A stretch of 64,000 nucleotides of DNA, from the IMG/VR virus record IMGVR_UViG_3300037475_000199, positions 1 through 64,000 of that record; one strand, given 5' to 3'. Origin of the DNA: a virus. How positions within the stretch are numbered: position 1 is the first letter of the stretch; each line of letters begins with the position of its first letter. The notes under the pieces were generated by a model. The model was given only the letters and a program-made list of their open reading frames with translations, was not told the origin of the DNA and did no database searches. The translations under genes were made by a program, and so were the position numbers. Of the stretch, positions 29,358 to 59,199 are shown in pieces.

Positions 29358-29380
29358 TATAGTTGATGCAAGGAGTTTCA

Positions 29381-33494: not shown

Positions 33495-33576
33495 TTAAAC
33501 ATATGTTTGAATCTGTTATATAGGTTCATGTTCCCAGAGAGGGAACTTTATAATTTAGACAACATGGAGAATGTTA

Positions 33577-34590
33577 ATGAAAAATTTTGAATTTTGTGTA
33601 TTTATTGGTCAATTTAGTCCATTCCATAATGGTCAATCTGCTATTCTTCAAGAAGCTTTAAATCAAGCAGAAACAGTTATTGTTGTCCTTGGTTCAGCTA
33701 AAAAGGCAAGAAACATTGAAGTTTCATGGAATGTCGAGCAACGCATTGAGATGATTAAGTCAACTCTTTCTGTCGAAGATCAGGTTCGTATTAAATTTGT
33801 TCCATTACGAGATCACATTTATAGTGATACAATTTGGGTAACTGAATTATTAGAAAAAATGACTCCCATTTTAAATGGATCAAAGAATGTTTCTTTGGTT
33901 TGTAGAGAAAAGTATAATAAAGAATATCTTAAATTGTTCCCGCAATGGGAATTAATCCCAGTTAAAACTACTGAGCCGCATCATGATGCGGAAGATATTA
34001 GACATCGTTATTTTACATATGATACATCTTATTCTCGTTTCGTTCACGAAAATGTAGCTAAGATGATGAAAGAATTTCAAGACACTCCAATCTTTCAAAC
34101 CTTAAAAAGTGACTTTGATTATGTCAAGAAATATAAGGCAGCATGGGAAGGCGCCCCATTTAAACCAATCTTTGTTACAGTAGATGCTGTAATTGTTAAA
34201 TCTGGACACGTACTTTTAGTGAAGCGTAAGGGTAATCCTGGTAAAGGGCAAATGGCATTACCAGGTGGATTTTTAGATCAAGAAGAGCTAATTGAAGATG
34301 CTGTTTTAAGAGAAGTAAAAGAAGAGACTGCTATTAAAATGTCTAAAGATGAACTTCGAGCCTGCATTACATATTCTGAAGTTTTTGATGCCAAAAATCG
34401 TTCATTGCGTGGGAGAACAATTACTCACGCATTTTTAATTGATTTAGGTTCCGGAACCCTACCAAAAGTAAAAGGTTCTGATGATGCAGAAAAAGCTTTT
34501 TGGCTTCCTTTGAACGAAGTCAAGGACCGTGAAGATGAATTTTTTGAAGATCATTTTCACATTATTAGTTCATTCACAAACAAACTATAA
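33577..34590 (+). CDS. natV: bifunctional NMN adenylyltransferase / Nudix hydrolase (NatV/NadM-Nudix type)
   Basis: N-terminal GQFSPFHNGQ is the nucleotidyltransferase (H/T)xGH-like motif. Nudix box GGFLDQEELIEDAVLREVKEETA. ATG 33577 after GGAGA. Confidence 0.6.
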   Translation: MKNFEFCVFIGQFSPFHNGQSAILQEALNQAETVIVVLGSAKKARNIEVSWNVEQRIEMIKSTLSVEDQVRIKFVPLRDHIYSDTIWVTELLEKMTPILNGSKNVSLVCREKYNKEYLKLFPQWELIPVKTTEPHHDAEDIRHRYFTYDTSYSRFVHENVAKMMKEFQDTPIFQTLKSDFDYVKKYKAAWEGAPFKPIFVTVDAVIVKSGHVLLVKRKGNPGKGQMALPGGFLDQEELIEDAVLREVKEETAIKMSKDELRACITYSEVFDAKNRSLRGRTITHAFLIDLGSGTLPKVKGSDDAEKAFWLPLNEVKDREDEFFEDHFHIISSFTNKL

Positions 34591-34633
34591 TCTTTTCAGA
34601 GAGAAAAGAAGTTAACAATACGGAGAGTACGAA

Positions 34634-36085
34634 ATGAGAACAGTAATCGCAAGAAAAGAAGACTTAGAACATAGCAACGTTACCGACACTGATAGTTACA
34701 AGTTTAGCCATTTTATTTTATATAAGAAGGCTGGCGTAACTAGAATGTTTAGTTATCTAGAGTCTCGTGGTGGTGAATTTGATGTTTCTACTATTTCAGC
34801 CCTACAAGTAGCATTACATAGATACATTGCAAAAGGATTTAAGAGAAAGGACATTGATCGTGCAGAAAAGCTTGCAGCTAAACATGGCGTCCCTTTCAAT
34901 CGTCCAGGATTTGAAGCCATGTATAACAAATATAATGGTAAGTTTCCAGTTAGAATTAGATCTATTCCTGAAGGTATGATAGTTCCAGTTTCAACTGCAC
35001 TATTAACTATTGAGTGTTGTGACGAAGATTGTTTTTGGATTGTCAATTGGCTAGAGACTTTATTATCTAGAATTTGGTATCCTTCTACTATTGCAATTGC
35101 AAGTCGTTCAGTCAAGAAACTTTGGAAGCACTTCTTAGATATGACTTCCGATAATACTGATCTCGAAATTGGATTTAAGCATCATGATTTCGGATCTAGA
35201 GGAGTAACCTGCTTTGAGCAAGCCGAATTGGGCGGTATGGCTCACTTGTTGAGCTTCTTTGGTTCTGATACTTTAGCGGGTGTTGAGCTTGCCAATTACT
35301 ACTATGATTGTGATATGTCAGGATTCTCGATTTGTGCTACTGAACATTCTACCATGACTATTTTTGGTCGTGCTGGTGAACGTCAAGCACTTATTGATTG
35401 GATTACTGAAACATTGGTTAATGTTCCAAATATTCCTGGTGTACCTAAAGTGTCTGCTTGTGTTGGTGACAGCTACAATATCTATGATTTTACTACACTA
35501 GTAAGTCGTGATGATGAGGTAAGAAACTTAATTGCTAATTCAGGGGGCACTTTAGTAGTAAGACCAGATAGCGGTAAACCATCTGAAGTTCTTCCTAAAA
35601 TATTGGAATTGTTTGAGCAAAACTTGCCATCAGGATCTATTACTGTTAATAGTAAGGGATACAAAGTTCTACCTTCATATTTGAGACTTATTTGGGGTGA
35701 TGGCATTAACCGTCGTTCAATGAAAGATATTCTTCAATTAGTAGTTGATCTTGGTTGGAGTGCATCTAATATTGCGTTAGGTTCTGGTGGCGGTTTATTG
35801 CAAGATGTTAATCGTGATACACAGAAGTTTGCTTTTAAGTGTTCGTTTGCTGAAGCAAAAGGCGTCTCAATTGATGTTCTTAAAGATCCAATCACTGATC
35901 CTGGAAAGAAATCAAAAGCGGGTCGCCTTGACACTATTAAGCTTCCAGATGGTGAAATTAAAACAGTCTCCATTGGAGTAAATGAAGAATGTCATCCTCT
36001 TAGCATTATGAATACTGTTTTTGAAATGGGAGATATTACTTATCACACTACGTTCGCTGAATGTAGAGACAGAATGGCGCTATGA
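34634..36085 (+). CDS. nadV: nicotinamide phosphoribosyltransferase (NAMPT/NadV)
   Basis: DTDSYKFSHF near the N-terminus matches the NAMPT DSYK motif. About 480 aa, the size of NadV. Confidence 0.65.
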   Translation: MRTVIARKEDLEHSNVTDTDSYKFSHFILYKKAGVTRMFSYLESRGGEFDVSTISALQVALHRYIAKGFKRKDIDRAEKLAAKHGVPFNRPGFEAMYNKYNGKFPVRIRSIPEGMIVPVSTALLTIECCDEDCFWIVNWLETLLSRIWYPSTIAIASRSVKKLWKHFLDMTSDNTDLEIGFKHHDFGSRGVTCFEQAELGGMAHLLSFFGSDTLAGVELANYYYDCDMSGFSICATEHSTMTIFGRAGERQALIDWITETLVNVPNIPGVPKVSACVGDSYNIYDFTTLVSRDDEVRNLIANSGGTLVVRPDSGKPSEVLPKILELFEQNLPSGSITVNSKGYKVLPSYLRLIWGDGINRRSMKDILQLVVDLGWSASNIALGSGGGLLQDVNRDTQKFAFKCSFAEAKGVSIDVLKDPITDPGKKSKAGRLDTIKLPDGEIKTVSIGVNEECHPLSIMNTVFEMGDITYHTTFAECRDRMAL

Positions 36086-37970: not shown

Positions 37971-38885
37971 ATGTGTAATGTACTCGTAGGCACAGCTGTT
38001 GGTGATGCTTTAGGTGTTCCATTTGAAACTTTTTTGATAAATAATCCTCTTCTTTTAGATTGGGATGGAACAACTTATCTTGGAAGTAAATATCATGGTT
38101 TAGAACCAGGTCAATACTCAGATGACACTCAACTATCTATTTTGGTTGCTAAATCATTAATATTAAATTCTGGATTTAATCCAGACGATTTAGCTGCAAG
38201 ATATCAAGATTGGTTTTTTTCTGGCGTTGCACGAGGTTATGGTAAAACAACAAAGTTAGCTATGGAAGCTCTTAAAAGTGGTAAACATTGGAATGAATCT
38301 GGGATTGCCGGCTCTTTAGGTAATGGAACGGCTATGCGTGCAGCTCCATTTGGAGTTTACTTTAGAAATGATTTTAAACAATTAATTGCTGCAGTAAAAA
38401 TAGATTCAGCAATTACGCATGTTTCAGAAGATGCTGAAGCTGGAGCTATTGCTATTGCATTAACAGCAGCTTATGCCGTTAATCGTAACACTGAAAATCT
38501 TTTAGACAAAATTTGTGAAAATTTACCAGACTGTAAAGTTAAAAAAACAATTTCTAGTTTGGATGCATTAATTAACGCAGATAATATTACTCCTCCACAA
38601 GCTTTAAGAGTATTGGGGACAAAGGCTAATGTACAAGAAACTGTGCCCGCAGCATTATATTGTTTTCTGAAATTTGATAATTATCACGATGCTGTGCTTG
38701 CTGCAATTAAAGCTGGTGGTGATACCGACACTACTGCCGCAATAGTTGGAGCTTTATTTGGAGCCAGAGATGGAATCAAAAAGATAGATAGAAAATTTTA
38801 TTCGGTAGAAGATTTTGATAAATTAATAGAGTTAGATAGCCAGCTTTATAACAGATCTAATTCATTATTTTTTCCTAGAAACTAA
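37971..38885 (+). CDS. ADP-ribosylglycohydrolase (ARH/DraG family)
   Basis: N-terminal VLVGTAVGDALGVPFE matches the ARH GdAlG...E motif. C-terminal AGGDTDTTAAIVGALFGA is the metal-binding D-T-D region. Confidence 0.6.
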   Translation: MCNVLVGTAVGDALGVPFETFLINNPLLLDWDGTTYLGSKYHGLEPGQYSDDTQLSILVAKSLILNSGFNPDDLAARYQDWFFSGVARGYGKTTKLAMEALKSGKHWNESGIAGSLGNGTAMRAAPFGVYFRNDFKQLIAAVKIDSAITHVSEDAEAGAIAIALTAAYAVNRNTENLLDKICENLPDCKVKKTISSLDALINADNITPPQALRVLGTKANVQETVPAALYCFLKFDNYHDAVLAAIKAGGDTDTTAAIVGALFGARDGIKKIDRKFYSVEDFDKLIELDSQLYNRSNSLFFPRN

Positions 38886-40444: not shown

Positions 40445-40473
40445 CATTTTTAAATGATTAGGATAGTGAAATG
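40445..40473 (+). promoter_or_regulatory. sigma70-like promoter (TTGACT-17-TAGGAT) within an ATGTG...CACAT inverted repeat
   Basis: Hexamers at the correct spacing. AAATGTGTGGTCTTGACTGCACATTT forms an inverted repeat over the -35. Confidence 0.35.
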
Positions 40474-40929
40474 GAAAACCACGAAACACCAGAAGCTATT
40501 AAAGCAAGGGCTGAACAAGCGGACCCTCTTGTTATGTATTTAATAGTAAGAGAAGAGTTAGAAATGAGTATTGGTAAAGCTTGTGCTCAATGCGCTCATG
40601 CTAGCCAAATGATCACTTTAAAATATTTGCCATTATATATTAAATATTTTGAAAAAGATATTGAGAATTCTGGTTGGATTGATAAAAGTTCATATGAAAG
40701 TTACTTAAGTTTTGTTGAATGGCTTGCCGGTTCTTTTCGTAAAGTGGTTCTTAAATCAGATGAAAAAGAATGGGTTAAAATCAAAAACGAGTTACCCAAC
40801 AACTCAATAATCGTTGTTGATGCGGGTTTAACCGAGCTTCAACCAAATACAGAAACAGTAATTGGTCTTTGGCCAATGAAAAGAAGTGAACGACCCAAAA
40901 TAATCAAAAAATTGCAAGTTTTAACATGA
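40471..40929 (+). CDS. peptidyl-tRNA hydrolase, PTH2 family
   Basis: PLVMYLIVREELEMSIGKACAQCAHAS aligns with the PTH2 core ([25 protein letters not shown]). Confidence 0.6.
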   Translation: MENHETPEAIKARAEQADPLVMYLIVREELEMSIGKACAQCAHASQMITLKYLPLYIKYFEKDIENSGWIDKSSYESYLSFVEWLAGSFRKVVLKSDEKEWVKIKNELPNNSIIVVDAGLTELQPNTETVIGLWPMKRSERPKIIKKLQVLT

Positions 40930-41255
40930 AAAAAATAACTAAAAAAGTAAAAATAGAAGAAGAAACAAAAGAGTATGATTTATTGTATCCTGTTTTAAGT
41001 GGTGTAAAAATAAATCATATTTATAAATATATTATTGATTATTTTGAAGATGAAGTACTATATTTGAAAGAAAGAATTAAAGAACAAAAAGACTACATAA
41101 AATTTGAAACAGATTCATATAGGCTTCAGAAAAAAGAAGTAAAAGCAGAAGTTTTATCCATGTCTAAAAATAAAAAAGCTCTTGAAAAAGAATTAACGAA
41201 ATTAAAAATTTCGTTAAAAAACGCCGACCAATTAAAAGATAATTTATGGAAATAA
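40926..41255 (+). CDS. coiled-coil hypothetical protein
   Basis: K/E-rich heptad-like sequence. Confidence 0.4.
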   Translation: MKKITKKVKIEEETKEYDLLYPVLSGVKINHIYKYIIDYFEDEVLYLKERIKEQKDYIKFETDSYRLQKKEVKAEVLSMSKNKKALEKELTKLKISLKNADQLKDNLWK

Positions 41256-41503
41256 AAGTTATAGGATATCACCTAACTGAAATTAAAAAGGGTATTCTCG
41301 GCAAATCTTCTAAAATTCAAGAAGAGTTAGATGAATTGGTGGATGCCGAATTACAAAACAATAAAATATTAGCTTTAGTAGAGCTATCAGATTTATATGG
41401 AGCTTTGGAGGCTGTCGCTTCTTCTTACAATTGTTCTATGGATGATTTAAAGAAGATGTCTGATGCCACCAAAAGAGCGTTTACTAGCGGACATAGGAAA
41501 TGA
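41246..41503 (+). CDS. MazG-like nucleotide pyrophosphohydrolase (small all-alpha NTP-PPase)
   Basis: IQEELDELVDAELQNNKILALVELSDLYGALEAVA matches the EExxE...E..D pattern of MazG/HisE-type domains. Confidence 0.45.
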   Translation: MEIKVIGYHLTEIKKGILGKSSKIQEELDELVDAELQNNKILALVELSDLYGALEAVASSYNCSMDDLKKMSDATKRAFTSGHRK

Positions 41504-42039
41504 TTGATTATCACTTGATATCTAATTGTATTAAAAAATACGAAGATTTAGGTTACAAGTATATAGATGTTCCTTGGTTTACTACTGAAAAAATAGTTAA
41601 TATTACTTTGCCACCAGGCAAAAAACCTTTTCATATAAATAATGATTATTTAGTAGGTTCAGCAGAACAGTCTTTTTTACATTTAATTTTAGCTGGCGAA
41701 TTAAAAGATGGTAAATATGTTGCCGCTTCACCATGCTTTAGAGACGATGAAATAGATCAATATCATCAAAAATATTTTTTTAAAGTTGAACTGATTAATT
41801 ATTCCAATAGTTATAAGTTTGATTATTTTGATTTAATGAATGTTATTTCTGATGCACAAAGGACGTTATCTTCTTTATGTACCAAAACAATAAAATCTTC
41901 AAAAACAAATGAAGGCGTTGATTTATCAATAAATGATATTGAAATTGGATCATATGGTATACGACAATTTAGTAACTTTAATTGGATTTATGGAACTGGC
42001 TTGGCAGAGCCAAGATTTTCGAGTTTAAATTATGGATGA
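41500..42039 (+). CDS. mini class-II aminoacyl-tRNA-synthetase-like catalytic core
   Basis: Motif-2-like CFRDDEIDQYHQKYFFKVE (fRxE...H..F...E) and motif-3-like GTGLAEPRF (GxGxGxxR). Only 179 aa. Confidence 0.35.
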   Translation: MIDYHLISNCIKKYEDLGYKYIDVPWFTTEKIVNITLPPGKKPFHINNDYLVGSAEQSFLHLILAGELKDGKYVAASPCFRDDEIDQYHQKYFFKVELINYSNSYKFDYFDLMNVISDAQRTLSSLCTKTIKSSKTNEGVDLSINDIEIGSYGIRQFSNFNWIYGTGLAEPRFSSLNYG

Positions 42040-43352: not shown

Positions 43353-44087
43353 ATGAAAAAAGAACTCTACAAGTCGATGATATCTTCTGAGGATAAAATT
43401 GCTATTTATCGTTCAGAAAAAGCAGCACATTTTATTCCTGAAAATGCTCTTGATGACATAGAAGTAATAAATTCTCCCTCCGGAAAATATTCTGTTACTG
43501 TTACCAAATACAAAACAAACAAAGAAAATAAAGTTTATACTCTGGGTTCTGTTTATTTAAATAGTAATAAACAATTGATCTCAGAGATTCAGAGAGATTA
43601 TGCTACTTTTCCACTTACGTTTGTAGAAAATCATCCAAATGGTCATGATTATTTAGTGTGTTCAGAAGATACTCAAGGTCAAACAGTAGTAGAATTAGAT
43701 ACTGGTGAAAAAGTTAGTTGGGTTCCAATTCTTGCGGGGTTTTGTTGGGTAGATATGACTCCATCACCTTCTCGCACTCTAATTGCAGTAGATGGATGTT
43801 ATTGGGCTTGCCCCTATGAGATCAAAATATATGATTTTTCAAATCCAATGAAACCACCTTTTGAGTGCTTAACTGAAGATTATAGTATTGAAAAATTCAA
43901 TGGGTGGAATGTAGATGACACTTGTTCTATTTATGTAGAATATGAAACAAGAAAATCAGATGGAAAACCAATAAAGGATTTGTCTGAAGAAGAGGAAGCT
44001 GCCCTTTATGAATTATTAGATCCTGGTCATAATCATAATGATTTATTTGGTTATAAAAACAAAGAATTTGTCTGGTCTAAATCATGA
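43353..44087 (+). CDS. hypothetical protein
   Basis: ORF only. Confidence 0.4.
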   Translation: MKKELYKSMISSEDKIAIYRSEKAAHFIPENALDDIEVINSPSGKYSVTVTKYKTNKENKVYTLGSVYLNSNKQLISEIQRDYATFPLTFVENHPNGHDYLVCSEDTQGQTVVELDTGEKVSWVPILAGFCWVDMTPSPSRTLIAVDGCYWACPYEIKIYDFSNPMKPPFECLTEDYSIEKFNGWNVDDTCSIYVEYETRKSDGKPIKDLSEEEEAALYELLDPGHNHNDLFGYKNKEFVWSKS

Positions 44088-44278
44088 ATAAAAAATATTT
44101 TGTAGTTTATTATGTTTGGGACACTTTTCGAGGGTGGAATGGTCCAATGAATATTCTTATAGATAAACATCCCTTAAAGTGGCTTAAAGAAGATAAGATT
44201 GCGTTATCAAAAGAACATAGTTGGGATGACATTTCTATTTCTTGGTGGCAATTATTAGAGGAAGATTATGACAAATAA
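44084..44278 (+). CDS. small hypothetical protein
   Basis: ATGA overlap. Confidence 0.3.
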   Translation: MNKKYFVVYYVWDTFRGWNGPMNILIDKHPLKWLKEDKIALSKEHSWDDISISWWQLLEEDYDK

Positions 44279-45029
44279 AGATAGTTTAGGCGACAGAATA
44301 AAGGCTTATGAGGATTGTTATAGAGTACAATTACCTCAAAGAATGCCAGTTATTCTTAGGGTTGATGGCAAATCATTTCATAATTATACCAAAGGTTGTA
44401 AAAGACCTGTTGACGAGAACCTTGTCAATTGTATGAATGAGACAGCAAAATATCTTTGTGAAAATATTCAGGGAGCAAAATTAGGATATGTACAATCAGA
44501 TGAAATATCTATATTATTAACTAACTATGAAACAATAAATACGCAATCATGGTTCGATAATAATTTGGTTAAAATGGTTAGCATATCTTCGGCTTTAGCT
44601 TCAGCTAAATTTACCTCTATTTCTGACACTATTTTTGGTAAGCCTAAAATGGCAGTTTTTGACAGTCGAGCTTTTGTAGTTCCAGTTAATGATGTTTGTA
44701 ATTATTTTTTATGGAGACAACAAGATTGTACCAGAAATTCAGTTCAAATGTTAGCTAGAAGTCTTTATTCTCATAAAGAATGTAATAATAAGAACAATTC
44801 TCAATTGCAAGAGATGTGCTTTCAAAAAGGTATTAATTGGAATGATTGCCCTACATCTCAAAAACGTGGTAGATGTATAATTAAACAATACAAGGTTAAA
44901 ACTGGAACTAATATTAAAACTGGCGAACAATTTTCTGCAGAACGTTCCAGTTGGGAAGTTGATAACGAAATTCCAATTTTCTCATTAGATAGAAATTATA
45001 TTAATAAACTAATAATTCTTAAAGACTAA
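44268..45029 (+). CDS. tRNA(His) guanylyltransferase Thg1-like protein (TLP)
   Basis: VILRVDGKSFHNYT compares with the Thg1 rIDGkkFH motif. KRPVDEN compares with the PxDE motif. YVQSDEISILL compares with GESDEYSFI. Confidence 0.6.
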   Translation: MTNKDSLGDRIKAYEDCYRVQLPQRMPVILRVDGKSFHNYTKGCKRPVDENLVNCMNETAKYLCENIQGAKLGYVQSDEISILLTNYETINTQSWFDNNLVKMVSISSALASAKFTSISDTIFGKPKMAVFDSRAFVVPVNDVCNYFLWRQQDCTRNSVQMLARSLYSHKECNNKNNSQLQEMCFQKGINWNDCPTSQKRGRCIIKQYKVKTGTNIKTGEQFSAERSSWEVDNEIPIFSLDRNYINKLIILKD

Positions 45030-45328
45030 GAATTCATATTATTAATATCTGATTTGGTTTTTATTTTATGGCATGATTTACATAATACCATTAAGCCAGA
45101 TGTATCGCAAAATAAACGCTCAATATATAAATCAAAAGTAGTAAATTTGCCTACTGGTATGATATGATCAACATTTATGTCTTTACGTCTAGTTGATTTC
45201 TTACATATAGCACAAGTATATAAACCATAAGATATTTTGGCTAAATTTAAAGCGCCTTGGCGTTGTTTGCTTCTGCCCCAAGTTCTACGTAGGGCGGCTT
45301 TAATATAGGCAATTGTAGATTTTCTCAT
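45026..45328 (-). CDS. free-standing HNH homing endonuclease (minus strand)
   Basis: CAICKKST...VDHIIPVGKF...LMVLCKSCHKIKT is an HNH motif. The orientation is opposite to the array. Confidence 0.55.
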   Translation of the reverse strand: MRKSTIAYIKAALRRTWGRSKQRQGALNLAKISYGLYTCAICKKSTRRKDINVDHIIPVGKFTTFDLYIERLFCDTSGLMVLCKSCHKIKTKSDINNMNS

Positions 45329-45362
45329 ACATATATTATAACTAATAAATAAAGGATTTTAA

Positions 45363-45650
45363 ATGGGCGTTGATTATTATACTTGTCAAAATTGCAGTGA
45401 TACATTTCCAGATTGTGGATACTATTTTACATGTAACGGTTGCGAAAGCATGTTTTGCTCAAACGAATGTGGTAAGAAACAAAGTGTAGATGGAAAAAAT
45501 CGCTGGAATGAAGATTTAACCTCATGTATTTTTTGTAGACATGAAGCAGTAACGGATAGAAGTGTTTTATTATTCTTGTGTAGGAAATATGGTATAACTG
45601 AAGAAGACGCAAATAAAGAGTGTTTAGAGGCTTGTAAAAATGGAAAATAA
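45363..45650 (+). CDS. Cys-rich hypothetical protein
   Basis: CQNCS...CNGC...CSNEC...CIFC motifs. Confidence 0.4.
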   Translation: MGVDYYTCQNCSDTFPDCGYYFTCNGCESMFCSNECGKKQSVDGKNRWNEDLTSCIFCRHEAVTDRSVLLFLCRKYGITEEDANKECLEACKNGK

Positions 45651-46266
45651 AGAATCTTTTAGAAATAGAATACAACCATATTTCTCCCCTGCAGTTCAAT
45701 TGGATATTAAACTTGCTTATGTATTAGCTAAATTTGGTCATCGAGCTCAAACTAGAAAAGAGCTTGATGATAATGGTAAGCCAATTAGATACTTTGAGCA
45801 TGTTAGAAGAGTTGCCATTATTCTTATGGATGATATGAAGATTATGGATGAAACAATGATCATTGCAGCTTTGCTTCATGACAGTCTAGAGGATACTTTG
45901 GATTTGACTCCCGAACTGTTAGAACACTCTTTTGGCATAGAAGCTGTCAATATAATTAAACATCTATCTAAGTGCCCTAAAGAGGGGTATCATCAAAGGT
46001 TGGCTAATTGTAGTAATTGGAAGGTTCTAGCTATTAAAGCTTGTGATAGATTAGATAATTTAAGGTCTTTAATGGTTCCAGGAACGCTTCTTAGCTTTCA
46101 AAAGAAACAAATTCAAGAAACAAAGGAAATTTATTATCCTTTATTTGACCAATTGCTTAATAGGTGCCCCTCTGAATTTAAAAACAATGTTCAATGGGTT
46201 CGCGATGAAATAAGAAGATTGGTCGAAAGATATAGTGTAATGATAGAGATGCAAGAGCAACCTTAA
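45640..46266 (+). CDS. RelA/SpoT-type HD-domain (p)ppGpp hydrolase (small alarmone hydrolase-like)
   Basis: AKFGHRAQTRK...YFEHVRRVAIIL...IIAALLHDSLEDT aligns with the SpoT HD hydrolase motifs (H..Q.R.sGePY..H...VA.iL...AALLHDvvEDT). Confidence 0.6.
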   Translation: MENKESFRNRIQPYFSPAVQLDIKLAYVLAKFGHRAQTRKELDDNGKPIRYFEHVRRVAIILMDDMKIMDETMIIAALLHDSLEDTLDLTPELLEHSFGIEAVNIIKHLSKCPKEGYHQRLANCSNWKVLAIKACDRLDNLRSLMVPGTLLSFQKKQIQETKEIYYPLFDQLLNRCPSEFKNNVQWVRDEIRRLVERYSVMIEMQEQP

Positions 46267-46282
46267 AATATATGGAGTAATC

Positions 46283-46846
46283 ATGACTTGTATTGTTGGC
46301 ATTGCTGAAAAGGGTAATGTGTATATTGGTGGAGATAGTGCTGGTGTAGGCGGATTATCTATCACCATAAGGGCAGATGAAAAAGTATTTCATAATGGTC
46401 CATTTATAATGGGGTTTACTACAAGCTTTAGAATGGGTCAATTATTAAGATATAAATTTAGCCCTCCAAAACAAACAATAAAGCAAGACGATATGGAATA
46501 TATGGTTAATGACTTTATTGACAGCGTTAGAAAGTGTTTTGCTGAAGGTGGTTGGGGTAAAGCTAGTGGTCATGATAACAATGAGGGTGGTAACTTTTTA
46601 GTAGGTTACAATGGTACCTTATATGAGATTTTTGGTGACTTTCAAGTGGCTATGCCATCTCTACAATACTCTTCTTGTGGTTGTGGCGAGGACTTAGCAT
46701 TAGGATCTTTGTATTCAACTGCAGGATTAAAGCCAGAAATAAGATTAAAGAAGGCACTTGATGCAGCTAGTCATTTTAGTGCTGGTGTTGCACCACCATA
46801 TGCCTTCGTAAAACAGCTAAGTAAGACCGCTAAATCTAAAAAATAA
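46283..46846 (+). CDS. HslV/proteasome-beta-like Ntn hydrolase
   Basis: MTCIVGIAEKGNVYIGGDSAG parallels the HslV N-terminus TTIVSVRRNGHVVIAGDGQ with Thr2. GFTTSFRMG and CGCGEDLALGSLY parallel GFAGGTADAF and IGSGGPYA. Confidence 0.45.
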   Translation: MTCIVGIAEKGNVYIGGDSAGVGGLSITIRADEKVFHNGPFIMGFTTSFRMGQLLRYKFSPPKQTIKQDDMEYMVNDFIDSVRKCFAEGGWGKASGHDNNEGGNFLVGYNGTLYEIFGDFQVAMPSLQYSSCGCGEDLALGSLYSTAGLKPEIRLKKALDAASHFSAGVAPPYAFVKQLSKTAKSKK

Positions 46847-46854
46847 TCTATCTC

Positions 46855-46883
46855 TTGACAGGTGGGCTTGACACCCTTATATT
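46855..46883 (+). promoter_or_regulatory. sigma70-like promoter (TTGACA-17-TATATT)
   Basis: TTGACA at 46855-46860 and TATATT at 46878-46883. A second TTGACA lies at 46868. Upstream of ligA. Confidence 0.45.
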
Positions 46884-46954
46884 GTCCGAGCCCACAGCGG
46901 GTTTATTTTATAAATTCAACATTTAACTGCATTGCACTTACCCAAGTAATTCAC

Positions 46955-48823
46955 ATGAACAGAATACAAGAATTATCAGACAAGATTATTAAGGCTCGTA
47001 ATGACTACTACAATCAACAGCCATCTGTTTCAGATAAGGTTTTTGATGCTTGGGTAGCTGAGCTATCATCTTTAGATCCAAATAATATAGCTGTAACGGC
47101 AATTGGTGCCCCAGTATTGCCCTCTGAATGGAAGAAGGCTAAGCATCAAATACCTATGGGCTCTTTAGATAAAGTTAATTTGCCAGCCGAACTAACTGCT
47201 TGGGTAGATACGCTACCCACAAATGGAAAACTTTTAATTACAGAGAAGCTAGATGGTCTTTCGATTGAAGTAATTTATGAAAATGGTAAGTTAACACAAG
47301 GCATTACTCGTGGTGATGGTGAAATTGGCGAAGATATTACTATTAATGTTGTTAAAATGAGTGGCGTCCCATCTCAATTAAAAGATAACTTTACTGGCTC
47401 TCTTAGAGGAGAGATTATTATGAAGAAAAGTGTTCATCAAAAGCACTTTTCAGATAAAGCAAATCCTCGAAATGCTGCTTCTGGAGTATCTAAACGTTTA
47501 GATGGTGTAGGTGTAGAGCACTTAAATATCTTCTTTTATCAAGCTTTGGGTGATATTGAGTTTCAGGCAGAGCAAGAACAATTTGCTTGGTTAGTTCATC
47601 AAGGTCTAACAACTCCTCTTTGGTGTTTAGCAAAGACCGCTGATGAGGTTAATAAGTTTTGGCGAGACTATCAAGACACTAAACGAGATAAATTAGACTA
47701 TGATATTGATGGTTTAGTTATTCGTCTTGATAATTTAGATGATCAAGCAGCTCTTGGAGACAAAGATCTTAGACCAAAGGGAGCTAAAGCCTTTAAATTT
47801 GATAATGAGACCAGAGAGTCAGTCATTAGAGATATTACTTGGCAAGTAGGCAACAGTGGTCGTATTACTCCTGTAGCCACAGTAGATCCAGTAGTACTGG
47901 TTGGGGCAACTGTAACTCGTGCCAGCATCTATAACCTAACTTATATTGAAGACCTAGGTCTAGATGTAGGTGCTACAGTTTTAGTAGCAAGAGCTAATGA
48001 TGTCATTCCCAGGATTGAAGAGTTGGTTAAAGGCACAGGAACTGTAGCTAAGCCACCAGCACATTGTCCAGAATGCAATGCTGTTACTATAATGAATGGA
48101 GAGAATCTACAATGTACTAATGTAGATACTTGTCCTGCACAAGTAATTGGTCGTATTAAGAACTGGGTAGCTGAGCTTAACTTATTAGAATGGGGCGACA
48201 CTCTTATTGAGAAGTTAGTTAAGTCTGGCAAGGTCTCTAATGTTGCTGACCTTTATACTTTAACTGTAGATGATTTAGCTAATTTAGATAGAATGGGTGA
48301 CAAGTCAGCAAAGAAATGTTATGATATTCTTTGGTCAGATGTAAATATTCCTTTGGACACTTTTTTAGGAGCTTTAAGTATGACAATGATTGGTGCTAGT
48401 ACCATTAAGTTAATTATGAATGCCGGCTGTGATACATTAGAAAAGTTTGGTCAGTTAAAGGCAGAACACTTTGAACAAGTCGCAGGCGTTGGTCCAACTA
48501 AAGCTAAGTTTTTGGCAGACGGATTAATGGCTAATCAAAAACTTATTTTGTCTATTTTGGATAACGGAGTTAAGATTAAAGATAAAGTTGATGGACCTTT
48601 GAGCAATAAAAGCGTTTGTTTTACTGGAACAATGACAAATAAGCGCCCAGTATTAGAGAAAATGGTTCAGGATGCAGGTGGCGATGTTAAAAGTTCTGTT
48701 GGCAAGGGTTTAACCTATTTGGTTATTGCAGATACTAATAGTACAAGCTCTAAAGCTGTTAGTGCTCGTAAGTATGGAACCACTTTAATTTCAGAAGATG
48801 AATTTTTAGATTTGGTGAAATAA
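46955..48823 (+). CDS. ligA: NAD+-dependent DNA ligase (LigA)
   Basis: Adenylation motif TEKLDGLSIEV (KxDG). Followed by OB, Zn-finger (CPECN...C), HhH and C-terminal BRCT-like regions. Start set at MNRIQEL. Confidence 0.7.
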   Translation: MNRIQELSDKIIKARNDYYNQQPSVSDKVFDAWVAELSSLDPNNIAVTAIGAPVLPSEWKKAKHQIPMGSLDKVNLPAELTAWVDTLPTNGKLLITEKLDGLSIEVIYENGKLTQGITRGDGEIGEDITINVVKMSGVPSQLKDNFTGSLRGEIIMKKSVHQKHFSDKANPRNAASGVSKRLDGVGVEHLNIFFYQALGDIEFQAEQEQFAWLVHQGLTTPLWCLAKTADEVNKFWRDYQDTKRDKLDYDIDGLVIRLDNLDDQAALGDKDLRPKGAKAFKFDNETRESVIRDITWQVGNSGRITPVATVDPVVLVGATVTRASIYNLTYIEDLGLDVGATVLVARANDVIPRIEELVKGTGTVAKPPAHCPECNAVTIMNGENLQCTNVDTCPAQVIGRIKNWVAELNLLEWGDTLIEKLVKSGKVSNVADLYTLTVDDLANLDRMGDKSAKKCYDILWSDVNIPLDTFLGALSMTMIGASTIKLIMNAGCDTLEKFGQLKAEHFEQVAGVGPTKAKFLADGLMANQKLILSILDNGVKIKDKVDGPLSNKSVCFTGTMTNKRPVLEKMVQDAGGDVKSSVGKGLTYLVIADTNSTSSKAVSARKYGTTLISEDEFLDLVK

Positions 48824-49164
48824 TGGATTTTATTGATAGTGATCGAAGTCTTCAAGTAGGTGATTATGTATTTCATAACTATTCAAAGAATAGTTTTTTA
48901 TGGAAAATAACTAAAATTACAAGAAGGTTTTTAACTCAAGATGATCTTAGATATGGGGTTTATAAAAATGCCAACATTGGTAATGAATATAATCCTTATG
49001 TTGAAATTGAATCTATAGCTGATTTGGGATTTAATTTAGTAAACAAAAAATATCGTAAACAAATAAGATATTTTGATGCGGTTTATTTAATTAAGGTTGA
49101 TCCAAAAGTCATTCAAAATCATATTAATACTTTAAATAAAGTATTAAAAGATTTTTGGACATAA
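48823..49164 (+). CDS. hypothetical protein
   Basis: ORF only. Confidence 0.4.
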   Translation: MDFIDSDRSLQVGDYVFHNYSKNSFLWKITKITRRFLTQDDLRYGVYKNANIGNEYNPYVEIESIADLGFNLVNKKYRKQIRYFDAVYLIKVDPKVIQNHINTLNKVLKDFWT

Positions 49165-49168
49165 TAAA

Positions 49169-49720
49169 ATGATCAGTGGTCTTAAATATATTCCCAATTT
49201 TATATCTTTAGATAATGAATTATCTTTAATTCATACTATTGACAATCAAATTTGGTCTAAAGATCTTAAAAGAAGAACTCAGCATTATGGTTATAAGTAT
49301 GATTATACTAACAAATCAATTGATGAATCTTTATATTTAGGAAGAATACCTCAGTGGTTAGAAAAATATTGTTTTAAACTTTATGATAATAAGTTTTTTG
49401 AGAAGTTGCCGGACCAAGTAATTATAAATGAATATTTGCCTGGGCAAGGAATTAATAAACATGTTGATTGCGTTCCATGTTTTGATCATACCGTTGCCTC
49501 TTTAAGCTTAAATTCAAGTTGTGTTATGTGTTTTGAAAATATTTATACGCATAAAGTTGGTGAACTGGCATTAGCACCATTAAGTTTATTGGTTTTGTCG
49601 GGCGAATCTAGATTTGAATGGATGCATTCTATTCCAGCTAGAACAAGAGATGTAATTTCTGATCAGGTTTTACCTCGTGGAAGAAGAATCTCTTTGACAT
49701 TTAGAACTGTTTTGTTATAA
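49169..49720 (+). CDS. AlkB-family 2OG-Fe(II) dioxygenase
   Basis: INEYLPGQGINKHVDCVP gives the H-x-D motif. A later H (WMHSIP) and RRISLTFR give the R-x-S motif. Confidence 0.55.
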   Translation: MISGLKYIPNFISLDNELSLIHTIDNQIWSKDLKRRTQHYGYKYDYTNKSIDESLYLGRIPQWLEKYCFKLYDNKFFEKLPDQVIINEYLPGQGINKHVDCVPCFDHTVASLSLNSSCVMCFENIYTHKVGELALAPLSLLVLSGESRFEWMHSIPARTRDVISDQVLPRGRRISLTFRTVLL

Positions 49721-50628
49721 ATTTTCCAGTCTTGTTCCCAAATAGATATAATTTTATATCCCGCCTCTATTAAAATATTTTCTCTATTTATAGTTTGTGA
49801 GTATAATTCACCAAATGTTTTATTGACAAATTTGTTAAAATCATTTGAATCAAATTTTTTAGGATTACCATGCCAATAGTCTCCATAAAATTCATAAACT
49901 ATGTTTGTAATTGGATCGAGAGCATCTACAAAATATTTTTTATTATTTATATATGATTGCCTATATTCTTGTGGTATTTGCAATTGGTTTAACCAATCAA
50001 TTTCTTGTTTTGAAATTCTGTTAATACATTTTGGACAACCTTGTCCAGATAAATGGTTATTAGGAGTTTGATTAAATTCACCATGTAATAAACAAATTAT
50101 TGTGATTTTAGTTGCATGATTTTTATATATCACTTTTGAATAATCAAATTTATCGCCATGAATGTCATTTGCTTTTACATTAAATTCTTCTAATGTTAAT
50201 CGTATGCTTTCTGAATTTTTTAGTTTGCCACATTTAGGACAACCTTTTCCACATTTATGAAGATGAGGCGTTTGCAAAAATAAACCATGTATTGGACAAA
50301 TTATTTTAATATGTTTATTTACTGAAATGTATTCAACTTCATGATAATCATAAAAATTATTATGAATTAATATAAATTCCTCAATCACATCTTTTGTTGT
50401 AAGGGTTCTGTTTTTGCCTGATGTAATTTTACTACATAATGGGCAGCCCTGACCATTTAAATGATGATTAGGTGTTTTGTAAAATTTACCATGAATTTTA
50501 CAGATTATGATTACTTTGACGCTGGAACAAATATAAATAGTTTCTGAATAATCATAAATATTATTATATATGGCATTAGCTTTTTTTAAAAAATTTTCTT
50601 GTGTAAATGCTTTGTCCATTTTAACCAT
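49663..50628 (-). CDS. homing-endonuclease-like protein: triple Zn-ribbon repeat plus Vsr/DUF559-type PD-(D/E)xK nuclease domain (minus strand)
   Basis: The motif H-G-x-F-x-Q-TP-x-x-HL-x-GQGCP-x-C occurs three times. C-terminal YEFYGDYWHGNPKKF...ISIWEQDW compares with the Vsr-like YEFDGdyWH motif. Confidence 0.5.
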   Translation of the reverse strand: MVKMDKAFTQENFLKKANAIYNNIYDYSETIYICSSVKVIIICKIHGKFYKTPNHHLNGQGCPLCSKITSGKNRTLTTKDVIEEFILIHNNFYDYHEVEYISVNKHIKIICPIHGLFLQTPHLHKCGKGCPKCGKLKNSESIRLTLEEFNVKANDIHGDKFDYSKVIYKNHATKITIICLLHGEFNQTPNNHLSGQGCPKCINRISKQEIDWLNQLQIPQEYRQSYINNKKYFVDALDPITNIVYEFYGDYWHGNPKKFDSNDFNKFVNKTFGELYSQTINRENILIEAGYKIISIWEQDWKIYNKTVLNVKEILLPRGKT

Positions 50629-54184: not shown

Positions 54185-55690
54185 ATGGCAGAGAAATTAG
54201 TTGCTTATTCGGCAGGCGAAGAACCGTCTTTTCCTGGAGATTATGATGTAGTAAAAAGGACTACATTAAATTTTACAGACATTATTAACAACAACAATAA
54301 ATATTATAATTTAGAAGTTCAAGTTGCTAAGAATGGCAGTTCAAGAATTTTTACTCAGTATGGTCGAGTAGGCGGAACGGCAGCCAAAGAATATCGAGTA
54401 GCAGCTAATCAGTCTCATGCTGAAACTGAAGCCGAAAAAATTATCAAGTCCAAAACTAAAAAGGGCTATGTTGAAGTTAAATTGGTAAAAGCTGATATTG
54501 GGTCCGAAGCAGGCAAGGCTAAAGTTGATACTTCAGCTTCTAGCGTATCAGTTGATACACTTAAAAAGATGGGTGTTAAAGTTCAGGAAGCAGAAACCAG
54601 TAAATTACATCCTGAAATTGGAGATTTAGTTAGAACTTGGTTCGGCGTTACACAGGAATTTATTGAATTAAATCTTGACACTAAAAAGTGTCCATTAGGT
54701 CAATTATCGATTGATCAAATTGATAAAGCAAAAGAAATATTAGATGAAGCTCGTTTAATTATTCATGCATCTAAACCAGATGTATTAGAATTAAATAAAT
54801 TAACTAACTCTTATTATAGTAACATTCCTCATAACTTTGGTTATGGTAGAATTAATGCCGATGTACTTCGTTTAGACAACGATGATAAGGTAAATAAAGC
54901 TTTTGATATATTAGATGTTTTTGGTTCAGCTAAAAACGTTCAAAGTGTTATTTCAAAGAAATCGGCTGTAGACTCTCAGTATGCCACTTTAAATGCTGAT
55001 TTAAATTTTATTGATCCAAAAGATCCTATTTGGAAATGGATTGACACTATGTTGCATGAGACTAAAGCTAGCAATCATCATTTCTTAGGCAAATTAAAAA
55101 CTCATAAAATTTATAAAGTAAATCGTAAAGGTGAAGAACAGTATTTTCTTAAGAATGCAGAGAAGATTGCTAAAGAATGTGGAAAGCATGATCCTTCTCC
55201 AGTTTACTCTAAATTAGTTAAATCTCGCCCAGATGTATCAAAAGAGCTAAGAGATTTGTATGCAAGAGCTAACGTTTCTCCTGGTTGGCATGGAACTCGT
55301 AGAGCTAATATGATTGGCATTACTACTAAAGGTCTTTTAATTAGACCTTCAGGTGTAGTTCATGCTGGTTCAATGTATGGTGACGGTGTTTACTGGGCTA
55401 CTAATAGTACTAAGAGCATCAATTACTGTGATGTTCGTGGCTCATATTGGGCTGCTGGTACAAATAAAACGGCTTATTTATTCTTAGGTGATGTTGCTTT
55501 TGGTAATTATAAATATGCTAATGGCTCACAATATTATAATAGAAAGAATATTTCGCCAGCACATTCTGTTTTTGCTCAAGGCGGGAAGAGCGGAGTATTG
55601 AATGACGAAATTATTACTTATACTCCATCGGGTCCAGAGCAACAACATTGTTTAAGATATATTATTGAATTCGAAACACAAGCAAAATGA
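54185..55690 (+). CDS. PARP-like ADP-ribosyltransferase (WGR domain plus PARP catalytic domain; H-Y-D variant)
   Basis: WGR-like YYNLEVQ...QYGRVGG. Catalytic WHGTRRANMIGI...GSMYGDGVYWA carries the H-G-T motif and Tyr. YLFLGDVAFGNY aligns with PARP1 LLLGEVALG, with Asp in place of the catalytic Glu. Confidence 0.6.
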   Translation: MAEKLVAYSAGEEPSFPGDYDVVKRTTLNFTDIINNNNKYYNLEVQVAKNGSSRIFTQYGRVGGTAAKEYRVAANQSHAETEAEKIIKSKTKKGYVEVKLVKADIGSEAGKAKVDTSASSVSVDTLKKMGVKVQEAETSKLHPEIGDLVRTWFGVTQEFIELNLDTKKCPLGQLSIDQIDKAKEILDEARLIIHASKPDVLELNKLTNSYYSNIPHNFGYGRINADVLRLDNDDKVNKAFDILDVFGSAKNVQSVISKKSAVDSQYATLNADLNFIDPKDPIWKWIDTMLHETKASNHHFLGKLKTHKIYKVNRKGEEQYFLKNAEKIAKECGKHDPSPVYSKLVKSRPDVSKELRDLYARANVSPGWHGTRRANMIGITTKGLLIRPSGVVHAGSMYGDGVYWATNSTKSINYCDVRGSYWAAGTNKTAYLFLGDVAFGNYKYANGSQYYNRKNISPAHSVFAQGGKSGVLNDEIITYTPSGPEQQHCLRYIIEFETQAK

Positions 55691-58388: not shown

Positions 58389-58865
58389 ATGATTACTATA
58401 ATTCAGGGAGATTTAATAGAAGCTAAAGAGAAATATTTGATCCACCAAACAAATTGTGTTTCGCATTTCGCGGCAGGTATTGCACAAACTATTTTTTCTA
58501 AATTTCCATATGCTAATGTTTATGCTAATAGAATAGAAGAAGACTTACCTGGACATATAGTTATTTGTGGTAACGGTAAAGATCAAAGATACATTGTTAA
58601 TTTAATGGGTCAGTTCTATCCTGGTGGATATTCTGAATCAGACATTGACAATGAAAAAGCACGACAACAATATTTCCACAAAGGATTACTTAGATTGGCT
58701 AAAATTCCTAATTTAGAGAGTGTTGCTTTTAATTTTAAAATTGGATGCGGAATTGGCGGAGGTAATTGGAATTGGTATAAAGGTACTCTTGAAAACTTTG
58801 CTAATTATATTGATAGTACACAAGGAGCTAAAACTTTTATCTATCAAAGAGAAGGTGACGTTTAA
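58389..58865 (+). CDS. macrodomain (ADP-ribose binding/hydrolase) protein
   Basis: ITIIQGDLIEAKEKYLIHQTNCVSHFAAGIAQ parallels the macro signature GDIT...IVNAAN..L.GGgGV. Confidence 0.55.
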   Translation: MITIIQGDLIEAKEKYLIHQTNCVSHFAAGIAQTIFSKFPYANVYANRIEEDLPGHIVICGNGKDQRYIVNLMGQFYPGGYSESDIDNEKARQQYFHKGLLRLAKIPNLESVAFNFKIGCGIGGGNWNWYKGTLENFANYIDSTQGAKTFIYQREGDV

Positions 58866-59197
58866 TGAAAAACGGATTAATAATTGATGATTATGGTACT
58901 CAAAAATGGTATAAAGAAGATCTTTTACATAAAGAAGACGGTCCTGCCGTAATCTGGAAAAGTGGAGATAAAGAATACCGCATTAATGGACAACTTCACA
59001 GAGAAGATGGTCCTGCTATTGAGTATAATAATTTTCATATGTGGTATTTTAATGATAAACTTCATAGAGTTGAAGGCGCCGCCGTCATTGACATTTTTAA
59101 TGATGAAAAAGAGTATTGGTATAAAGGAAAATCAGTTGAGGACATAGAAACTGACGAGGATTTTAAAAATTTCATCAAATTCAAGGCGTTTTGGTAA
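58865..59197 (+). CDS. MORN-repeat protein with KFKAFW tail
   Basis: LLHKEDGPA and QLHREDGPA repeats. C-terminus DEDFKNFIKFKAFW. Confidence 0.55.
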   Translation: MKNGLIIDDYGTQKWYKEDLLHKEDGPAVIWKSGDKEYRINGQLHREDGPAIEYNNFHMWYFNDKLHRVEGAAVIDIFNDEKEYWYKGKSVEDIETDEDFKNFIKFKAFW

Positions 59198-59199
59198 AC

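Follow-up and report, generated by a model that had tools for sequence, protein, structure and literature searches.

A small alarmone hydrolase and a proteasome-fold N-terminal-threonine hydrolase encoded side by side in a clade of very large phages

Introduction

SpoT and the other long RSH enzymes are bifunctional proteins of about 700 aa, which combine hydrolase, synthetase, TGS and ACT domains. The small alarmone hydrolases (SAHs), of which 11 subfamilies are distinguished, are promiscuous enzymes, and MESH1, one of them, also acts as an NADPH phosphatase. Published work further shows that MESH1 and ATfaRel, both SAHs, rescue the aminoacylation of pyrophosphorylated tRNA. SAHs encoded by phages have been published too: in the Salmonella phages PVP-SE1 and SSU5, the stand-alone enzymes counteract each of the five toxSAS toxins tested (2020, PMC7229694), and an "HD-alarmone PDease" was noted in jumbo phages (Iyer et al. 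2021, PMC7824862). Phage SAHs are a plausible counter to abortive infection mediated by alarmones or toxSAS toxins, and the tests so far have been performed by toxin co-expression, not by infection.

In bacteria, the peptidase gene hslV and the unfoldase gene hslU share an operon, and BPH, the beta-proteobacteria proteasome homologue, occurs as a heptameric double ring. Proteasome homologues of phages have already been published and are uncharacterised. PPH is about 140 aa long and lacks helix H2 (PMC8665760), and the AAH family was described as a group I proteasome homologue with a compact subunit containing the helices H1-H4 without insertions, on the basis of 240 sequences at 90% identity, occurring in alpha-proteobacteria and Actinobacteria and carried by phages to Bacillota and further groups (Fuchs, Alva and Lupas 2021).

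Here we report the analysis of a window of 64,000 nt from an uncultured phage (IMGVR_UViG_3300037475_000199, positions 1 to 64,000; the genome may reach several hundred kb), in which a gene for an HD hydrolase of the RelA/SpoT family and a gene for a proteasome-fold N-terminal-Thr hydrolase (hereafter the HD and Ntn genes) are direct neighbours.

Results

The HD and Ntn genes

Both ORFs lie exactly where the original prediction had placed them (Table 1), on the same strand and separated by a spacer of 16 nt. Compared with their clade relatives, the two genes show dN/dS values of 0.07-0.18 (0.09 for the HD gene), and since they also have many homologues and match described families, both are real genes. 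Megablast of window positions 44000-48900 against cultured phages yielded no match, promoter and terminator scans of 44000-49200 gave nothing above the shuffled expectation, and no PADLOC defence model matched the HD protein, the Ntn protein or their neighbours.

Table 1. Positions in the window of the two genes, their key codons and the MazG/HisE-superfamily candidate
Feature	Position	Strand	Evidence
Small alarmone hydrolase (SAH), 208 aa, single-domain RelA/SpoT-family HD hydrolase	45640..46266	+	Pfam HD_4, TIGR00691, PDB profile, fold
His54 codon, first metal-binding His, Mesh1/Rel "Y-x-x-H" motif	45799..45801	+	Invariant in alignments of 121 and 29 homologues; aligned to Mesh1 and Rel
H80-D81-S-L-E84-D85 codons, HD metal ligands and catalytic ED dyad (LLHDSLEDT)	45877..45894	+	Invariant; Mesh1 "LLHDvvEDT", Rel "LLHDtlEDc"
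D136-R-L-D-N140 codons, last metal-binding Asp and catalytic Asn (CDRLDNLR)	46045..46059	+	D136 and N140 invariant; Mesh1 "aDkLDNLR", Rel "aDRLhNLR"
GGAG Shine-Dalgarno sequence, 5 nt before ATG of the Ntn gene	46274..46277	+	Direct sequence reading
Proteasome-fold N-terminal-Thr hydrolase, 187 aa, group I proteasome homologue, AAH-like; PHROG "peptidase HslV family"	46283..46846	+	
Thr2 codon, predicted nucleophile (Thr1 after Met removal)	46286..46288	+	T in 269/271 homologues; exactly one preceding residue in 258/271
Asp18 codon (proteasome Asp17)	46334..46336	+	D in 271/271; aligned to HslV GGD
Lys34 codon (proteasome Lys33)	46382..46384	+	K in 271/271; aligned to HslV Lys33
G133-C134-G135 codons, family version of the G-S-G (Ser129) motif of proteasome, HslV and BPH	46679..46687	+	Aligned to "iGSG" of HslV and BPH
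MazG/HisE-superfamily candidate ORF	41246-41503		Weak PRA-PH family match, EExxE...ExxD motif

The HD protein is a single-domain small alarmone hydrolase

Pfam HD_4 (PF13328) recognizes the HD protein at 50.6 bits (E 2.3e-13) against a gathering cutoff of 27.2, and the same domain is precomputed on 120/120 of its close homologues, while 729 homologues in total were collected by a word-indexed search. The RelA/SpoT model TIGR00691 matches through its hydrolase part (2e-17), covering only positions 1-146 of 687, and the protein scores below the cutoffs of the full-length RSH models, with 62.7 bits vs 499.2 for TIGR00691 and 49.2 vs 947 for PRK11092. At the profile level, the family matches Mesh1, SAH and Rel hydrolase domains with E-values of 1e-17 to 1e-7, and in the PDB it finds Drosophila Mesh1 at 6e-17 and the T. 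thermophilus Rel NTD at 1e-15. The AF2 model (pLDDT 88.3) adopts the all-helical RSH hydrolase fold, and its best 31 Foldseek matches in the PDB are all Mesh1, SAH, Rel, SpoT or (p)ppApp hydrolase structures.

The catalytic set of H54, H80-D81, E84-D85, D136 and N140 is intact, and the H..HD..D signature expected by the original prediction does align, in that the metal ligands, the ED dyad and the Asn all correspond to those of Mesh1 and Rel without variation across the family. The same holds for R39-K40 and Y51, the basic and aromatic residues of substrate binding, and the Rel-like "QETxEIYxPL" helix is kept. Neither synthetase nor regulatory domains are present; lacking the synthetase, TGS and ACT domains, the protein is not SpoT. 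Sequence, motifs and fold thus identify it as a single-domain SAH of the RelA/SpoT-family hydrolase class, so that of the "SpoT-type HD (p)ppGpp hydrolase" proposed originally the HD hydrolase class stands and the SpoT type does not.

The Ntn protein has a proteasome fold and family-specific invariant residues

The Ntn protein begins with M-T-C-I-V-G and has no earlier in-frame start, which, together with the Shine-Dalgarno sequence 5 nt before its ATG, indicates that Thr2 directly follows the initiator Met without a propeptide. The conservation of Thr2, on which the original prediction depended, is nearly complete (Table 1). At position 134, Cys occurs in 229/271 homologues (84%) and Ser in 25/271 (9%), so the canonical G-S-G is not the rule in this family, and S48 and R50 are invariant residues specific to it. 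Because of the Cys in place of the G-S-G serine and these two invariant residues, the chemistry of the Ntn protein may differ from that of HslV and BPH.

PHROG family phrog_1040, "peptidase HslV family", matches the Ntn protein at 2e-20, and the JGI annotation likewise reads HslV. No Pfam or NCBIfam family was matched at E <= 0.01, and a PDB search with the single sequence returned chance glucanase matches only; with the family profile, the best PDB E-value belongs to an HslV (2.7e-8). The high-confidence structural model has the alpha-beta-beta-alpha proteasome fold, with helices H1 (49-58), H2 (70-88), H3 (136-145) and H4 (151-165) and a short terminal helix; its neighbours are BPH, HslV and 20S beta subunits, and the nearest solved structure is BPH, not HslV. 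The claim that the protein mirrors HslV consequently holds at the superfamily level but not for HslV proper, as BPH is closest, Pfam and NCBIfam do not recognize it, and its distribution is AAH-like.

This distribution is very wide. Exhaustive searching of metagenomes gave 5,575 clusters of homologues at 50% identity, and 473 matches were found on viral contigs. Among species genomes, the best 80 of 365 matches fall in Rhizobium, Mesorhizobium, Azospirillum, Streptomyces, Frankia, Paenibacillus and similar bacteria, and many bacterial copies adjoin terminase and portal genes.

Search for an HslU partner

As originally predicted, the 64-kb window contains no AAA+ ORF of HslU size. The search was extended to the neighbourhoods of about 170 Ntn homologues (97 sources, 1.38 Mb), where no HslU/ClpX-like ORF was found within 8-10 kb; the queries were E. 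coli HslU and ClpX, and they produced only two marginal matches (E about 2e-3). An "ATPase" 2.4 kb from the Ntn homologue of a Moorella phage was considered as an HslU and rejected, being an AAA_5 protein. Many carriers of the Ntn gene are phages of 30-60 kb, and their visible flanks are without an AAA+ unfoldase.

Adjacency of the HD and Ntn genes

The two genes stand side by side in 16/16 loci of one clade of 60-491-kb phage contigs, in which the gap between them measures 9-191 bp, the GC content ranges over 0.31-0.50 and the synonymous divergence is saturated. Three clade members (L091-L093) have lost the Ntn gene and kept PTH2, Thg1, HD and ligase. Outside the clade, 69/69 viral loci whose Ntn identity is under 58% have no HD gene within 8 kb, and 80/80 bacterial Ntn loci have none within 5 kb; cultured phages with an Ntn gene have no HD neighbour, and the megaphage LR745208.1 carries both genes about 100 kb apart. 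Since the ligase, Thg1 and other neighbours are equally syntenic, the adjacency is not special. It is synteny by shared ancestry and not a working module, and by itself it does not point to functional coupling.

Ntn matches in Salmonella and Escherichia phages were considered as rV5-like phages (PVP-SE1-like, with the tested SAH), which would have made an independent co-occurrence; this was rejected, as they are T5-like phages, whose homologue is of the short PPH type with a match over about 143 aa, and jumbo phages of ~350 kb.

Genome context and the MazG-like ORF

Translation and tRNA genes abound in the window (17 tRNAs, EF-Ts, PTH2, Thg1-like, aaRS-like and RNA-ligase-like), and so do NAD/ADP-ribose counter-defence genes (NAMPT, NMNAT-Nudix, PARP, ARH, macro and NADAR). 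An NAD-dependent DNA ligase gene directly follows the HD-Ntn pair, and the Ntn gene is surrounded by replication and accessory genes rather than by head genes.

At 41246, where a MazG-like gene had been proposed, the ORF is present, and its assignment to the MazG/HisE superfamily, as judged from sequence, appears weak but real. The residues of its EExxE...ExxD motif (E26, E27, E30, E46 and D49) are invariant in the family, and 19/27 members match Pfam PRA-PH (best E 1.5e-5), with the window protein itself at 18.0 bits below the cutoff of 21.3; a PDB profile search returned nothing significant (HisE E 1.1). The accompanying analogy between a phage alarmone hydrolase and cyanophage MazG is outdated, because cyanophage MazG does not hydrolyse magic-spot nucleotides (PMC6850273); the toxSAS-neutralising SAHs of PVP-SE1 and SSU5 are the better precedent (PMC7229694).

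Discussion

We consider it highly probable that a very large phage carries here two accessory genes independent of each other, one for an SAH and the other for an AAH-like Ntn hydrolase, which are adjacent by lineage synteny. Both are unremarkable members of families previously described in phages. By analogy with characterised SAHs, two phage SAHs included, the HD protein, which is predicted to be Mn2+-dependent, would strip (p)ppGpp and (p)ppApp of their 3′-pyrophosphate, and it would probably act on 3′-pyrophosphorylated CCA ends of tRNA as well, as other SAHs do. When made during infection, such an enzyme would keep host growth and translation running despite the stringent response or toxSAS-type abortive-infection toxins, and may thereby serve in counter-defence. 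As for the Ntn protein, cleavage of the initiator Met presumably frees the Thr, which would form the catalytic triad with Asp18 and Lys34, and the protein would most likely assemble into a BPH/HslV-like ring peptidase without a dedicated HslU partner.

Other explanations of the Ntn protein have to be weighed against this. It could be a genuine HslV working with an HslU-type unfoldase that is supplied by the host or encoded elsewhere in the phage, as the PHROG and JGI labels, the top PDB profile E-value of an HslV and the conserved Thr1, Asp17 and Lys33 would suggest, and as the window spans only 64 kb of the genome; however, the closer structure is that of BPH, for which no ATPase partner is known, the Pfam and NCBIfam families give no match, no HslU/ClpX-like ORF lies near about 170 homologues even though bacterial hslV and hslU share an operon, and the small carrier phages show no AAA+ unfoldase in their visible flanks, so that we regard a genuine HslV as unlikely. 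That the protein is not a protease but a connectase-like transpeptidase/ligase or a small-molecule amidase is, in our estimate, a rather doubtful proposal. A role as the prohead maturation protease of the phage might be read from the packaging modules of 21-23 small phages and prophages, in which the Ntn homologue immediately precedes TerS/TerL or lies between TerL and portal, but in 10/10 such loci tested the portal is directly followed by a prohead protease of canonical type (Peptidase_S78 or ClpP), and the Ntn gene in the window stands among replication and accessory genes; replacement of the prohead protease is thereby effectively refuted, and we give this role almost no credence.

Regarding the HD protein, its main activity could instead be that of a MESH1-like NADPH phosphatase acting on the NAD(P) pool, the gene being grouped with those for NAD+ salvage and the NAD+-dependent ligase rather than with alarmone or tRNA chemistry. 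Mesh1 is indeed the top match in sequence and fold, including the human MESH1-NADPH complex 5vxa, the ligase gene directly follows the pair, the NAD/ADP-ribose genes listed above share the window, and the promiscuity of SAHs is documented; nevertheless, the bacterial Rel hydrolase domains score as well as Mesh1, the Rel-like helix is retained, and the phage SAHs tested so far counter toxSAS products, which makes NADPH an improbable main substrate. A functional two-gene module, in which for example the peptidase liberates amino acids or breaks down a host factor and the hydrolase quenches the alarmone signal that follows, would account for the gap of at most 191 bp in all clade loci despite their differing GC content and saturated synonymous divergence, for the shared strand, short spacer and Shine-Dalgarno sequence, and for the presence of both genes in LR745208.1, distant as they are there. 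Yet the HD gene is missing from the surveyed viral and bacterial Ntn neighbourhoods and from beside the Ntn gene in cultured phages, L091-L093 have dispensed with the Ntn gene alone among the neighbours named, and ligase and Thg1 are just as syntenic with the pair, and we hold such a module to be very improbable. Scarcely more credible is the most elaborate reading, namely a viral unfoldase-free "mini-proteasome" (Cys for Ser129, invariant Ser48 and Arg50) that would degrade specific host proteins and cooperate with an SAH serving chiefly as a tRNA 3′-CCA de-pyrophosphorylase against CapRel-type toxSAS immunity, the two forming a translation-protection island with PTH2, the Thg1-like, aaRS-like and RNA-ligase-like genes and the 17 tRNA genes.

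Under the preferred reading of two independent accessory genes, the adjacency adds little, because it reflects lineage synteny. The clade adds a divergent and strongly conserved SAH in huge phages with large tRNA and translation toolkits. The Ntn family is very large and phage-spread, carried by small temperate phages in their packaging modules and by huge phages in accessory regions, and biochemistry on any one member would annotate thousands of genes.

Comparison with known systems

Like the SAHs of PVP-SE1 and SSU5, the HD protein is a phage-encoded single-domain RSH hydrolase with HD_4 and the same catalytic residues, and the same role would be expected of it, namely removal of the products of host RelA/SpoT or of toxSAS toxins. 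In sequence, it is not close to them: tblastn against 50,697 phage records gave 10 matches, none of which was SSU5 or PVP-SE1, the best being a 485-kb uncultured phage at 42.6% identity. Its best sequence and fold matches are Mesh1 (3nqw, 5vxa) and the hydrolase domains of long Rel/SpoT enzymes (6s2t, 1vj7, 7qpr), with which all metal and catalytic residues align; it differs from them in being phage-encoded, in an identity of 22-30% and in standing without synthetase, TGS and ACT domains. Its substrate-binding loop contains an insert of about 5 residues (ELDDN), and a long, conserved pair of C-terminal helices (residues 151-206) extends past the Mesh1 core.

The Ntn protein is set apart from HslV (ClpQ, the peptidase of HslUV) by the absence of HslU in the window and near the homologues, by the failure of Pfam and NCBIfam to recognize it and by its greater structural closeness to BPH. 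From BPH (5ovs, 5ovt, 5ovu) it differs with 17% identity, G-C-G for G-S-G and its own invariants S48 and R50. PPH falls with it in phrog_1040 and is detected by tblastn at 28-30% identity, but is shorter and without the H2 that is predicted in the 187-aa Ntn protein. With AAH, in contrast, it shares a compact subunit of about 180 aa, H1-H4, the Thr1/Asp17/Lys33 triad and the relationship to HslV and BPH, and the families share alpha-proteobacteria, Actinobacteria, Bacillota and many phages as carriers, with 5,575 clusters at 50% identity in metagenomes here vs the 240 sequences at 90% of AAH. By distribution and architecture, the Ntn protein fits the AAH family (published representative WP_035979212; Fuchs et al. 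2021).

The HD protein as a small alarmone hydrolase

Both genes of the pair were located on the same strand exactly where the original prediction had placed them, with the 187-aa product beginning MTCIVG, and its overall annotation of the pair proved correct. With dN/dS values of 0.07-0.18 against clade relatives, the HD and Ntn genes are under strong purifying selection.

The HD protein passes the Pfam HD_4 cutoff (PF13328; 50.6 bits, cutoff 27.2); against the RelA/SpoT model TIGR00691, its match is confined to the N-terminal hydrolase portion. A single-sequence search retrieved Drosophila Mesh1 (6e-11) as well as Rel and SpoT hydrolase domains, and the family profile improved these matches to 6e-17 (Mesh1) and 1e-15 (Rel). 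Residues H34, R35, Q37, R39, K40, Y51, H54, H80-D81, E84-D85, D136 and N140, which include the anticipated HD signature (H..HD...D), do not vary among 121 close homologues or across a set of 29 sequences, one of them a megaphage protein of 44% identity. Each of these residues has its aligned counterpart in Mesh1 and Rel, and together they represent the RSH hydrolase metal ligands, ED dyad, catalytic Asn, and substrate-binding basic and aromatic residues. The best 31 PDB matches of its AlphaFold model (pLDDT 88.3) are all RSH hydrolases. Because the 208-aa protein lacks any synthetase or regulatory domain, it is a small alarmone hydrolase (SAH) and not SpoT; therefore, the predicted "SpoT-type HD (p)ppGpp hydrolase" holds for the RSH hydrolase class, as supported by Pfam, motifs and fold, but not for SpoT, the protein being single-domain.

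A role for this SAH may be drawn from three published results. Aminoacylation of tRNA with a pyrophosphorylated CCA end was restored by the SAHs MESH1 and ATfaRel; each of the five toxSAS toxins tested was neutralised by the stand-alone SAHs that Salmonella phages PVP-SE1 and SSU5 encode (PMC7229694); and for the "HD-alarmone PDeases" of jumbo phages a role against alarmone-based immunity was predicted (PMC7824862). The analogy to alarmone hydrolysis by cyanophage MazG, also put forward originally, should be dropped, because that enzyme does not hydrolyse magic-spot nucleotides (PMC6850273). The "MazG-like gene" at 41246 is an 85-aa ORF with weak but consistent signs of a small HisE/MazG-superfamily protein, and its supposed link to ppGpp has no basis.

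Genomic context

The window encodes 17 tRNA genes (1462-27697, ARAGORN), a translation and RNA-repair toolkit of EF-Ts, GroES, PTH2, and Thg1-like, aaRS-like and RNA-ligase-like genes, and additionally NAMPT, NMNAT-Nudix, PARP, ARH, macro and NADAR genes, which is consistent with a host-takeover and counter-defence region. The NAD+/ADP-ribose set, conserved in 39-491-kb relatives, looks like NAD+ salvage together with ADP-ribosylation and its reversal. The aaRS-like ORF here is truncated; in relatives, the gene is a full PheRS-alpha-like one that includes an FDX-ACB domain. Minus-strand genes are few, and the HNH endonuclease and the DUF4379/DUF723 protein among them are probably mobile or homing elements. 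Several 79-100-aa ORFs (608-1439, 17723-18210, 24005-24244) have similar N-termini (e.g. MKYF..., ...PSEIL..., MKYLKINDEKIPSEVL...), suggesting a small paralogous family scattered between tRNA genes.

Coordinates of the gene pair and other features in the window
Feature	Position	Strand	Remarks
tRNA-Ile	1548-1622		anticodon TAT; ARAGORN
tRNA call	16082-16178		4-base anticodon (agtc), 97 nt; ARAGORN
EF-Ts	25098-26006
GroES (Cpn10)	29363-29665
RNA-ligase-like ORF	30311-30928
NAD+/ADP-ribose set	33571-36085, 37971-38885, 54185-55690, 58389-59658		NMNAT-Nudix, NAMPT, ADP-ribosylglycohydrolase, WGR-PARP, macro domain (weak hit), NADAR
Peptidyl-tRNA hydrolase PTH2	40471-40929
Class II aaRS-like ORF	41500-42039		truncated
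Thg1-like tRNA-His guanylyltransferase	44268-45029
HNH endonuclease	45026-45328	-	between Thg1-like gene and zinc-finger ORF; also in relative L001
Cys-rich ORF	45363-45650		95 aa; phrog_6884
HD gene	45640-46266	+	ORF, 208 aa
Ntn gene	46283-46846	+	ORF, 187 aa, N-terminus MTCIVG
DUF4379/DUF723 treble-clef zinc-finger protein	49663-50628	-	321 aa

The HD gene start overlaps the end of the Cys-rich ORF by 11 nt. This ORF is kept upstream of the HD gene in two relatives (L001 and L095), and its place is taken in others by either a zinc-finger ORF of the DUF4379 type or a small ORF resembling a P-loop kinase. Within the 108-nt spacer 3' of the Ntn gene (46847-46954) lie an 11/12 sigma-70-like match (46855-46883) and, at 46888-46904, a weak hairpin with a T-run after it; site counts around the spacer did not exceed shuffled expectation. 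The mechanical ORF of the NAD-dependent ligase begins at GTG 46862, and homologues and the Pfam domain favour a Met at ~46955 (MNRIQELSDKI).

Adjacency of the two genes

The close relatives are viral contigs of 60-491 kb (GC 0.31-0.50) collinear with the window, in the order PTH2, Thg1-like, aaRS-like, HD, Ntn, NAD-ligase, then PARP, radical SAM and NADAR. At 16/16 loci with Ntn identity >= 58% and upstream DNA present, a gap of 9-191 bp separates the Ntn gene from the HD gene upstream of it, as a two-gene module would have it. However, an HD homologue occurs within 8 kb at none of 69 viral loci with 48-58% Ntn identity, and within 5 kb at none of 80 bacterial loci; in three clade members the Ntn gene is missing from an otherwise retained backbone of PTH2, Thg1, HD and ligase; and LR745208.1, a 485-kb uncultured phage (GC 54%), has the two about 100 kb apart (HD homologue, 42.6% identity, 350349-350969; distant Ntn homologue, 29.6%, 246843-247334). 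The module is therefore rejected: the adjacency reflects lineage synteny, is not evidence of coupling, and is not meaningful.

The Ntn protein as a proteasome homologue

A GGAG Shine-Dalgarno lies 5 nt ahead of the Ntn ATG and no in-frame start was found upstream of it, so that Thr2 immediately follows the initiator Met. Pfam and NCBIfam searches of the protein returned nothing, and PHROGs assigned it to phrog_1040 "peptidase HslV family" (2e-20). An exhaustive search yielded 5,575 homologue clusters (50% identity, E <= 0.001). Among 271 aligned homologues (41-96% identity), Thr2, whose conservation the original prediction had made decisive, is found in 269, with exactly one residue ahead of it in 258, and Asp18, Lys34, Gly44 and Arg50 in all. 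The family profile bears out the proposed HslV likeness at superfamily level (2.7e-8), also matching BPH, the beta-proteobacteria proteasome homologue, over its full length (1e-6) and actinobacterial proteasome beta (3.5e-5), with the family Thr, GGD and Lys aligned to Thr1, Asp17 and Lys33. The protein is most likely an active Thr peptidase in a predicted BPH/HslV-like ring.

As anticipated, no HslU-size AAA+ ORF is present in the 64-kb window, its sole clear P-loop protein being a 184-aa AAA_28 protein. A phmmer search of 5,476 open frames from 97 sources (1.38 Mb), with approximate HslU and ClpX sequences of E. coli as queries, gave only two marginal matches (E about 2e-3), and no HslU adjoins the Ntn gene in the cultured phages Moorella MTATph1 and Geobacillus E3. 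In 21-23 small phages or prophages the Ntn gene lies just ahead of TerS/TerL or between TerL and portal. Loci with an AAH-like gene in the packaging module are L032, L036, L038, L039, L046, L057, L058, L062, L072, L077, L080, L086, L088, L108, L109, L116, L131, L149 and L155. A replacement maturation protease is ruled out, since an S78 or ClpP prohead protease still follows the portal at 10/10 loci tested.

Three group I proteasome homologues are described in phages, namely PPH (about 140 aa, without helix H2), AAH and CPH (PMC8665760; Fuchs, Alva and Lupas). T5-like phage matches cover only about 143 aa and are of the PPH type, and the present protein is not PPH because all four helices are present. 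Species-representative genomes carrying the family are mainly Rhizobium, Mesorhizobium, Azospirillum, Streptomyces and Frankia, besides some Bacillota and Chloroflexota; this is the distribution defining AAH, and by distribution and architecture the protein is a candidate AAH-like member. The significance comes mainly from the size of this AAH-like family, for which no functional study was found in the literature, and not from the adjacency. Both gene kinds, SAH and proteasome homologue, have already been described in phages, and those reported here are new, divergent members. The Ntn family differs from the proteasome in having G-C-G (46679-46687) in place of the Ser129 G-S-G (of the 271 homologues, 84% have Cys and 9% Ser at this position), and from HslV and BPH in its invariant Ser48 and Arg50 ("SFRMGQ"), which are absent from both.
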